A stretch of DNA of 64,000 nucleotides from Octopus sinensis (taxonomy: Eukaryota). Positions 16,884 to 43,502 of this stretch are shown here, piece by piece. A program made the translations under genes and the position numbers. The stretch is from positions 54,374,001 to 54,438,000 of the forward strand of contig NC_043009.1 in the NCBI RefSeq assembly GCF_006345805.1. Reading direction: 5' to 3'. Every line of letters begins with the position of its first letter. Positions within the stretch are counted from its first letter, which is position 1. The notes beneath the pieces were generated by a model that worked only from the letters and a program-made list of their open reading frames with translations, did not search any database and had not been told where the DNA came from.

Positions 16884-18300
16884 CTTCGTAACACAGTGTA
16901 GGTAAAAATGCACCGGAATCTTTTGTCATATGTCAAGTCACAACAAGGATCTCAGACCGATAATACTTTCCATAAGATGTGCGCTGTGCCCAATAAGGCT
17001 GCTTCCTGCATTGGATTTCCAGTTGCCTTAAGAAGTCTTGAAGTTTCAATGGGATTATGTCCATCGCTCCGATTATCACTAGTATCACTTTTACATTACC
17101 CTCTCAAATTCCACACAGTCTTGCCATTTCCACTTTCAATTTGGAGTACTTGGTGATTTTTTTCAACCTCTTTACTCACAACATTCACGTCATTTGGTAT
17201 GGCTACATCAATGATTTGACAGCCTCTCCTACACAATATGACAATATCCGGCTGATGGTGTTCTATTACACGATTGGTTTGAAAATCATAGACCTAGAGT
17301 ATCGTTACTTTTCCATCATCCAGCATAATTTTACTTGGTACATGCTCAAACCAGTTCTTTGTTACTTAATATTGGTATTTACGTCATAAGTGCCAATGAA
17401 GATACACAGACATTTTATCGTGGCGGTGCTTGTATTATTTTTGTGCAAGGCTCTCACAGCCACTTACCAAGGGGTCGCATTTTCCACACTCATTCCACAG
17501 AGTCTGCATTTCTGGGTGTCAGAAGTTTTATAAATGTTATACTTCACTGAATTGGTAGCGAGAGCCTGGTCTTGTGCAGCAATGATCAGGCTTTCGGTGG
17601 TATGCTTCAAATCACTTCGCTCAAGCCATGCCCACGATGCTATATTATACTTAACGTCCTGTGTATTCTTTTCAAACTGTCCATGCATTCTCGTTTCAAG
17701 ACTGTCTTCTTTTCTCTTCTCCTCAGCTCTTTGGTTAAACTCTTCCTTGCCCATCATTTCTTCAGCATTTACACCCATATCTTTCGTGGCACATTGCCGC
17801 AGGTCTTCATCACTATTTATCAAATAGAATGGTCTATACTAATTAGTCCTCTGCCGCCACTCTTTCTTTTCATATACAGTCTATTTCCGTTTGCTTTAGG
17901 GTGTTATGCCCCATGTAGCATCATCAACTTTCTCGTCCTTCTATCCAGTGATGGTATTACCTCCTTAGTCCATTTGGGCAAATGCCCAGATATTCATTGC
18001 CGTAATCAAAATTTTGGCATTCAGGTTGGATTTCAACACCATCTTCACCTTTTTTTGGTACGCCTCGCTGACCTTGACTTTCATTTCTCTGTGTAGAATG
18101 TCATCCAGCTCCCAAATCCCTAAATATCTATACCCTCTCCCGATGGCAACTGCAATCCGTCTTTTCATATTAAGTACTGAGCATTTGGTTATTCCAAATT
18201 CCATACCGAAGTCTGTCCCTACCACACTTCTCGACTGTTTTGGTTAAAGAATCTAAAACAATTTCCCAAAACAGTTTCAGCTCATCCATAAACAGAAGAT
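16883..18300 (-). mobile_element. 5'-truncated R4/Dong-clade LINE (RT C-terminus, CCHC finger, RLE), pseudogenised
   Basis: Minus strand: LLFMDELKLF, FGMEFGITKC, YRYLGI, MHGQF, WLERSDLKHTTESLIIAAQDQAL, CRLC, ending LLGTAHILWKVLSV*. Short 3' UTR then (AAT)n; TAA-like repeats at the 5' junction as well. Confidence 0.92.
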
Positions 18301-38872: not shown

Positions 38873-38919
38873 CCATGCATGTATGTATGTATGCATATAT
38901 ATATATATATATATATATA

Positions 38920-39076
38920 CTTTATTTTAAGCAGCAGAAAATTCAACAAAATCTGTTACTCTGAGTTTCTCGTTGCCGTTCATCAGACAGTTCATCTAAC
39001 AAAAACTGTCTGATGAACGGCAACGAGAAACTCAGAGTAACAGATTTTGTTGAATTTTCTGCTGCTTAAAATAAAG
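38920..39076. repeat. perfect 73-bp inverted repeat, 11-nt spacer
   Basis: 38920-38992 is the exact reverse complement of 39004-39076. Confidence 0.97.
39006..39043 (+). ncRNA. minimal type I hammerhead ribozyme motif (mirror copy on minus strand 38953-38990)
   Basis: CTGT-CTGATGA-aCG(GCAA)CGa-GAAAC-TCAGA-GTA-ACAG: intact core, helix I CTGT/ACAG, GNRA-capped helix II, GUA triplet at 39037-39039. Confidence 0.82.
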
Positions 39077-39149
39077 CATATTACTCTATCACTGGTATTT
39101 GAGTACTCTTTTTTCCACCTTGTTTCACATTTATGTGTTTACTCCGGTC

Positions 39150-39197
<48 letters not shown>

Positions 39198-42241: not shown

Positions 42242-43502
42242 CGAGGGGCGTTCAATAAGTAATGCCCCTGACCCACTTGCGGTTGTTTGATTTAGCTGAA
42301 ATGTCCACTTATTTATACCTCTATAGATTACGTGGCGAATTACAGCTCTGAACTAATTGTGGTTTCTGATTTACAGGTGTTTGAACTGAGTCAAGTGTGA
42401 AATGGAGCCTGTTGAGTGTCGAGCAGTGATCTGGGTTTTTTATTTGAAAGGACGCACACCACGGGAGACTTTTGATGAAATGAAAGTAACTTATCGTGAT
42501 GATGCCCCATCATATGACCTTGTAAAACGCTGGCATTGTGAATTCAAACATAGTCGGAACTCTGTGGAAACAGCTCCCAGATCTGGTCGCCCCCTTCTGC
42601 CGTTGATGAGACGTCTGTCCGTCAAGTTGAGGCTGCCATTTTGGAAGGTCAACGCATAACTATTCGCCAAGTAGCCCATAAGGTCAAGATTAGTACCGGG
42701 TCTGTGGAAACTATCATTCATGACCATTTGCATATGCAAAAGGTGTCTGCCAGATGGATTTCCAGGTTGCTTACACCTTTCCAGAAGCAAGAACGCGTTG
42801 AGTGCTCGAGGATGAATTTGGAGATGTGCCAAGAAGATGAGTCAACATTTTTCAAAAGACTGATCACACAGGATAAAACCTGGGTCCATCACTATGATCC
42901 ATAGACCAAAGCCCAGTCAATGCAGTGAAAGCACCGTGACTCACCTCCTCCAAAGAAGGCAAGGGTGCAGCCCTCCGCTGACAAGGTTATGCTCACAGTC
43001 TTCTGGGACCAGGACGGAGTAGTGATGACAGATTTCCTGGCAAAGGGTACCACAATTACAGGAGCCTATTATGCTTCACTTTTGAGGAAATTAAGAGAAG
43101 CTATCAAAATCAAGAGGCGGGGCAAGATCAGCAAAGACATCCTCCTCCTGCAGGACAACGCTCCGGTCCACAACTCGCGTGTCGCCAGATCAGAAGCACA
43201 GGCGTGCAGCTATGAACTCCTCCCCTTGCACCCTCTGATTTCACCTCTTCCCAGCCATGAAGTTGATTTTGAAAGGAAAGCGTTCCCAGATGATGCAGCC
43301 TTGATTTCTGAAGTCACGTCGTGGTTGGAGGACCAAGCTGGGGTCTTCTACAAAAACGGTCTCCAGAGCTGTATCAAACGATGGGAGAAATGCATAACTC
43401 TGGGTAGTTCCTATGTAAGAAAAGACTAATAACTGGGCCAAGTGTCGTTGCTCTACTGCTATGCGAAGTGGGTCAGGGGCATTACTTATTGAACGCCCCT
43501 CG
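42242..43502 (+). mobile_element. full-length mariner transposon (irritans/Hsmar2-like ends)
   Basis: Perfect 37-bp TIRs cgaggggcgttcaataagtaatgcccctgacccactt (42242-42278 and 43466-43502), TA on both flanks, 1261 bp. Confidence 0.97.
42402..43429 (+). pseudogene. mariner DDD transposase pseudogene
   Basis: HTH...RSGRP, KVSARWISRLL, ITQDKTW, LQDNAP, KRWEKC. Frameshift near 42600, stops at ~42902 and ~42926, deletion removing YSPD. Confidence 0.95.

Follow-up and report, generated by a model that had tools for sequence, protein, structure and literature searches.

Why should a 230-bp insertion carry a hammerhead motif on both strands within a perfect palindrome: because the arrangement does something, or because of the way in which a mobile element came to be inserted there? 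The unit lies at positions 38920–39149 of the window (the whole 64-kb stretch of Octopus sinensis DNA that was analysed), and we consider it highly probable that it is one copy of an abundant repeat, the likely 5′-truncated 3′ end of an EN+ Penelope-like element (PLE), whose palindrome likely arose by fold-back of cDNA at a (TA)n target. That it is a PLE stub of some kind, known here from the element's 3′ end, can be held with slightly greater confidence still; membership of the Hydra clade, assigned from that 3′ end by comparison with Hydra rows, is favoured less strongly. Taken singly, the locus is of little consequence, being a defunct stub from an element class already known; what it offers lies in the family from which it comes.

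A palindrome with a hammerhead core in each arm

The two arms (Table 1) were found to be exact reverse complements over 73 bp, with identity ending there, and are separated by an 11-nt spacer, just as the original prediction had described them. The 230-bp unit that it had delimited between (TA)n runs was likewise recovered, with 73 bp of the unit (39077–39149) lying outside the palindrome. A target duplication is unreadable at this insertion owing to the (TA)n on either side, a limit also noted in the available text of PMC8557442. The locus contained no tandem monomers, and there was no RNA-editing scar between the arms, which are identical. None of the public-run contigs listed spans the whole 230 bp, which leaves the assembly of the window as the support for this particular locus.

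Table 1. Features of the unit and its flanks (positions in the window; inferred roles are putative).
Feature	Position	Strand	Remarks
(TA)n target, left flank	38895–38919		ends a longer microsatellite field that begins at about 38769
Left arm: apparent inverted, 5′-truncated, tail-less copy of the element end	38920–38992	−
Mirror hammerhead motif	38953–38990	−	4 stacked stem I pairs; predicted site between 38957 and 38956
5-nt stretch complementary to 39004–39008	38988–38992	+	likely a natural micro-palindrome; putative fold-back priming point
Spacer	38993–39003	+	element sequence of the direct copy; extends stem I; hairpin loop
Right arm: apparent direct copy of the element end	39004–39076	+
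Minimal type I hammerhead motif	39006–39043	+	cleavage predicted after A39039
One-sided 3′ tail	39077–39149	+	72 nt to the long terminus of the family at 39148, then one C
(TA)n target, right flank	39150–39189

The 38-nt motif of the right arm holds CUGAUGA (39010–39016), GAAA (39027–39030) and GUA (39037–39039), so that the core elements CUGANGA, GAAA and UH stand in type I order, and its mirror runs from 38990 to 38953. Helix III comprises 3 bp, proximal stem I 4 bp, and helix II only 2 bp closed by a GCAA loop, with an A-A opposition at its base (10.1/11.1). Scanning both strands of the 64 kb for CUGA-GA followed by GAAA gave four matches, two of which are the cores of the palindrome. The original prediction had put a hammerhead with an intact core and GUA site on both strands; the core and the GUA do recur on both, but stem I differs, as the spacer extends pairing to 12 pairs over 13 positions on the plus strand, whereas on the minus strand just the four proximal pairs stack (energies of the hammerhead fold −7.5 and −0.4 kcal/mol, respectively). 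The extension of stem I on the plus strand only indicates that the original lies in the right half, from which the left arm was copied in inverted and shortened form.

Helix III (39030–39038) is self-complementary, with a predicted self-duplex of −9.4 kcal/mol, as would suit dimerisation and as is typical of hammerheads that act in pairs. The G10.1–C11.1 pair is absent, its place being taken by A-A here and by A-G or A-U in other copies of the family. Rfam returned no match in the window at gathering score, and when the threshold was relaxed to E≤10 near the unit its 60 matches included no hammerhead family. A microRNA precursor was considered and rejected: again nothing reached gathering score, and the best sub-threshold match, MIR395 (55.3 of 56 bits), is a generic match to a long hairpin. 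Helix II (39017–39026), where its base is A-U, agrees with an apical loop of 10 nt given for Penelope-2_NV, and may be either the tip of a once-longer helix or a chance resemblance.

An RNA reading through the unit would form an exact 73-bp duplex, in keeping with the perfect double-stranded RNA originally proposed, and its predicted fold has an energy of −131 kcal/mol. The competition between folds that was proposed alongside it appears one-sided: with the left arm included, the hairpin is calculated to be more stable than the best hammerhead-containing fold by 62–76 kcal/mol, at all four transcript lengths (4/4), and to nucleate as 39004–39012 emerges, before the core has been transcribed. 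Even without the left arm the calculated gap against the hammerhead fold is 5–7 kcal/mol. A gap of 62–76 kcal/mol would leave no room for a switch, the hammerhead being blocked instead, and since a head-to-head pair gives one sense core per transcript, the dimer that such motifs require could not form in cis. The prediction is thus of a read-through RNA whose single sense core is locked in a 73-bp duplex, with no in-cis dimer and no cleavage. The original prediction was to be abandoned should neither the isolated arm nor the family consensus cleave after 39039; that is too strict, because lone minimal PLE hammerheads are reported to be inactive in the available text of PMC4209133 and PMC11167929.

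The ATG within the hammerhead core (39013) opens a frame of 45 codons, 39013–39147 (+). Each of its two stops is replaced by a sense codon in part of the family contigs (P about 0.04), as against none of the four stops in the other two frames. An ATG so placed recalls the Poseidon open reading frames that begin in the hammerhead (PMC11167929, PMC3846280, available text), but neither a protein search nor Pfam gave a match to the frame. Elsewhere, the window holds a fragment of a mariner-type transposase at 42929–43429 (+; Pfam Transposase_1, E 8e-21). An open frame at 17464–17838 (−) has no Pfam match and ends in a CxxC motif, presumably much as non-LTR retrotransposon proteins do at their C-terminus.

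An abundant family with two 3′ termini

The further copies that the original prediction had proposed to look for were absent from the window, where blastn found no second copy of the unit, but plentiful outside it: 12,150, 4,456, 3,522 and 1,518 contigs aligned to the unit in the four public runs examined (4/4, of 24 listed). The stretch was present in 21/24 listed run rows, spanning 7 coded organisms and 10 studies; no RNA run was among the holders listed, which carries no information on expression. Depth ratios of 39,000–134,000 would put the copies in the tens of thousands, as a rough order only, since depth is not copy number. Family depth drops steeply toward the 5′ side while some contigs run on upstream of 38995, indicating that most copies are 5′-truncated ends of a longer element; the family is thus dispersed, high in copy number and 5′-truncated. 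Of the telomerase-like RT and GIY-YIG endonuclease that the coding parent of an EN+ PLE would specify, no gene could be tied to it, the one protein search returning nothing. An exact 32-letter pattern had no match in metagenome contigs and none in viral contigs. The family went under no published name in the literature searched or in the available parts of the PMC8557442 supplement and PMC13282606, Repbase and Dfam lying outside the search; two 15-mers from the arm and one from the tail likewise had no occurrence in the PMC8557442 supplement.

Variation within the family bears on the age of the palindrome. A at 39026 accounted for up to 41, 55, 76 and 43% of depth in the four runs, the remainder being G and T, and the mirror place, 38970, had no variant row. 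The original prediction took the A-A mismatch shared by the arms as a sign of recent copying: one arm was indeed most likely copied from the other, but with A at 39026 reaching 41–76% of depth the mismatch is no private marker; it is the state of the family, and does not date the copy. It is instead the 73/73 identity of the arms, and that only, which makes a young palindrome plausible, implying a divergence below 4% at 95%. The arms are also concordant at 4/4 variable sites (0.02–0.12 if unlinked), and concordance and identity together make one template and a young age plausible. Homogenisation of the arms after insertion found no significant support, although neither of the two near-private changes (38999 and 39089) falls within an arm (P 0.13). 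At the base of helix II, A-U made up only 9–20% of depth, and U4 (39011) was read as C in 12–63%, from which it appears that the core is not tightly conserved in the family.

In all four runs (4/4) family contigs enter (TA)n at two places, 39076–39081 and 39148. Loose (TA)n ends at 39148 were found in 64–121 contigs per run and those at 39081 in 4/4 runs, while 39077 was read as T in 11–16% of depth. The two termini, short and long, lie 37 nt and 109 nt past the predicted cleavage site. The outer end of the left arm is the mirror of the short terminus and the right half reaches the long one, leaving a tail on one end only, of 72 nt as against the 30–40 bp reported. Among published Hydra consensuses in the available material, the distance from cleavage site to end, taken from lengths, was ≤50 nt in 10/24 (30–48 nt) and 91–160 nt in another 10/24 (97–153 nt), with three in between and one beyond (the count omits the Penelope-18 5′ row and, for Penelope-13_HM, the row for strand 1); these two classes bracket the 37 and 109 nt of the unit. 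The 72-nt tail, taken with the two end classes, suggests that the 30–40-bp tail rule fails for the Hydra clade, and that a long tail may be a Hydra trait across the clade.

Two other features of the contigs were observed. Consensus loose ends before 39069–39070 and before 39109 mark a diverged subfamily in which distal stem I and the tail are changed, giving at least two lineages. In one run (X1), two joints, one from 39050 to 38997 and the other from 39054 to 39000, step some 54 nt back over the hammerhead at single-locus depth, resembling a local head-to-tail duplication; copies carrying such a duplication could form the dimer in cis.

Formation of the palindrome

Following the PLE literature, insertion would begin with the element's GIY-YIG endonuclease cutting (TA)n. 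Reverse transcription would start at the far terminus (39148), cover about 160 nt and halt once the hammerhead had just been passed, whereupon the cDNA end would snap back over the 11-nt loop, prime on its 5-nt self-complementary stretch and copy itself. Resolution of the return copy at the near terminus (39076) would leave the tail on one side alone, and it would be only the position of the truncation, upstream of the core, that gave two cores.

Junctions elsewhere in the family could be set against this scheme, using the 15 best-supported of 61 joints found. Inverted-to-direct joints made up 14 of these 15, every breakpoint being different; none of these 14 other junctions kept two complete cores, and none shares the junction of the unit. 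Such varied breakpoints, together with the 0/14 count of two-core joints, indicate that the palindrome is remade at each insertion, the two cores seen here being an accident of where truncation fell. The two 5′ ends lay within 11 nt of each other in 12/14 junctions (permutation P 0.0015, the 11-nt cut-off having been chosen post hoc), with a median offset of 5 nt (P 0.027; rank correlation alone was not significant, P 0.09); the other two had large offsets, 24 and 46. At the locus, 38988–38992 pairs with 39004–39008, and the loose-end consensus before 38995 has the same 5-mer in 2/3 of the runs that list one (with low agreement, 0.56–0.63, over 9–19 contigs). The coupling of the 5′ ends and the 5-mer micro-palindrome favour fold-back of cDNA, which we regard as the better-supported junction step, though with restrained confidence.

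An alternative route to the same junction, possible but clearly the less probable of the two, would have both cut DNA ends prime RT on two RNA copies, one for each 3′ terminus, with the truncated cDNAs then joined head to head at 5-nt microhomology. It would explain why the left arm ends exactly at the short terminus of the family, it accords with PAc, for which two RT start sites and a dimer model are described (PMC11167929, available text), and the offsets of 24 and 46 in 2/14 junctions fit it. It does not lead one to expect 5′ ends coupled in 12/14 junctions, nor arms that agree at all four variable sites, although linkage or a single source locus would give the same agreement.

Half of the inversion junctions (7/14) have a longer copy that starts within 39037–39046, at the predicted site (P 0.008 under a uniform null, with the interval chosen post hoc). 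Only 5/14 start at or after 39040, the cluster lies beside the detection limit, shorter copies are in any case expected to be commoner, and the sample is again 15 of 61 joints, so that to read it as a footprint of in vivo cleavage by the family's hammerhead, with its 2-bp helix II, is doubtful. If the reading were true, the family would be a fossil record of in vivo cleavage by a minimal PLE hammerhead and would separate fold-back from two-ended priming. The many short inversions of so abundant a family could test both how inverted PLE copies form, an open point in PMC8557442 and PMC11167929 as far as their available text goes, and whether the PLE hammerhead cuts in vivo (same sources).

Readings of the unit as a whole that dispense with a truncated PLE fare less well. 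Exact 73-bp arms, two intact cores and the very stable predicted read-through fold are what might be expected of a regulated ribozyme, or of a source of double-stranded RNA or siRNA, kept or spread for that reason; but the palindrome occurs once in the window, its two cores and its junction recur in 0/14 other inversion joints, the calculated gap between folds allows no switch, and the family core is loose (U4 as C in 12–63%, A-U helix II base at 9–20%), making a functional palindrome very improbable. It would be scarcely more credible, indeed if anything less so, to dismiss the unit as a fold-back artefact of assembly or library, for all that its arms are 100% identical and that no listed contig spans it: the mirrored sequence ends where the family itself has a terminus and adjoins (TA)n there, without taking in tail and flank, and inversion junctions of the family are present in public runs, at least 14 in one run and several of these also in a second or third.

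A non-autonomous RNA, retrozyme- or SINE-like, that relies on the enzymes of PLEs and lacks any coding parent of its own sequence is a more serious contender, yet still an unlikely one. No open reading frame is linked to the family, non-LTR retrozymes are reported as derivatives of PLE pLTRs (bioRxiv 10.64898/2026.07.22.740005, available text), and the two joints that return about 54 nt over the hammerhead are like a local tandem. The locus itself, however, lacks tandem monomers, and the steep fall in depth toward 5′, with sequence continuing upstream of 38995, fits a longer element truncated at its 5′ end. Such an RNA would share the same mechanism of insertion. The non-LTR retrozyme class proper was rejected, as head-to-tail tandem monomers, each with a hammerhead, were not found at the locus. 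MITEs and foldback DNA transposons are bounded by inverted repeats that form both termini; that class was also rejected, since the palindrome leaves 73 bp of the unit uncovered and inversion breakpoints vary between copies.

Comparison with Penelope-like elements

The stub of a PLE, the preferred reading, can be placed beside published elements (sources other than preprints are cited by PMC number, and for the text and tables available). An inverted, 5′-truncated copy beside the 5′ end, a one-sided tail of 30–40 bp and (TA)n targeting are standard for PLEs (PMC8557442), and the unit shows both a hammerhead in a terminal repeat and an inverted 5′-truncated copy adjacent to its 5′ end, as EN+ PLEs do. 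The head-to-head inverted copy, junction palindrome, tail at one end and two 3′ termini are shared with Penelope and Poseidon (PMC3846280, PMC11167929), from which the unit departs in its tail (72 nt against 30–40 bp) and in having no readable target duplication. Palindromes at inverted junctions were read in PMC3846280 as self-priming on an antisense template, and PMC11167929 ties the tail to two sites of RT initiation, between which it would lie; the latter also describes the hammerhead as protein-assisted and dispensable in vitro, with no RNA reads ending at its site.

Minimal metazoan PLE hammerheads (PMC4209133) share with the unit a type I core, a proximal helix I of few pairs and a palindromic helix III suited to a dimer. 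They are described as occurring in pairs on opposite strands, the single motif not cleaving, but members of those pairs lie about 100–700 bp apart whereas core starts in the unit are only 24 nt apart, and the unit is without their conserved G10.1–C11.1 pair and long helix II. Non-LTR retrozymes (bioRxiv 10.64898/2026.07.22.740005, available text) resemble the unit in being non-coding and PLE-derived with a type I hammerhead, but are head-to-tail tandem monomers, in contrast to the head-to-head, 5′-truncated locus described here.

Among PLE clades the unit most resembles Hydra, which it matches in its (TA)n target and clade-like hammerhead, the hammerhead comparison having been made with Hydra rows. 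Neptune and Naiad favour microsatellites too, so that a (TA)n target is not exclusive to the Hydra clade (PMC8557442); that clade's RT and EN motifs are given there as RWK, DKT and a CxCX5C linker, with no CCHH. Hydra-clade PLEs share with the unit the (TA)n target, a type I hammerhead near the 3′ end, a self-complementary helix III and two classes of end distance. They differ in that helix II of the unit is shorter (2 bp) and has A-A where the table gives U-U, U-C or a pair (15/26 published rows have a mismatch at 10.1/11.1, A-A in none; PMC8557442 File S2), and in that the whole insertion here is only 230 bp with no open reading frame of an element seen. Hydra-1_Obim, the sole Hydra family that File S2 lists from an octopus, differs from the unit in its hammerhead, whereas that of Hydra-2_aMil in the same file is identical to 39006–39043 at 27/28 positions outside helix II. 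Penelope-13_HM (PMC8557442) has, as the unit does, an attached 5′-truncated inverted copy and a (TA)n target, and a hammerhead is listed for each of its strands. The inverted arrangement with two hammerheads is a published by-product of PLE insertion; new in detail are the 72-nt tail and the very short helix II.
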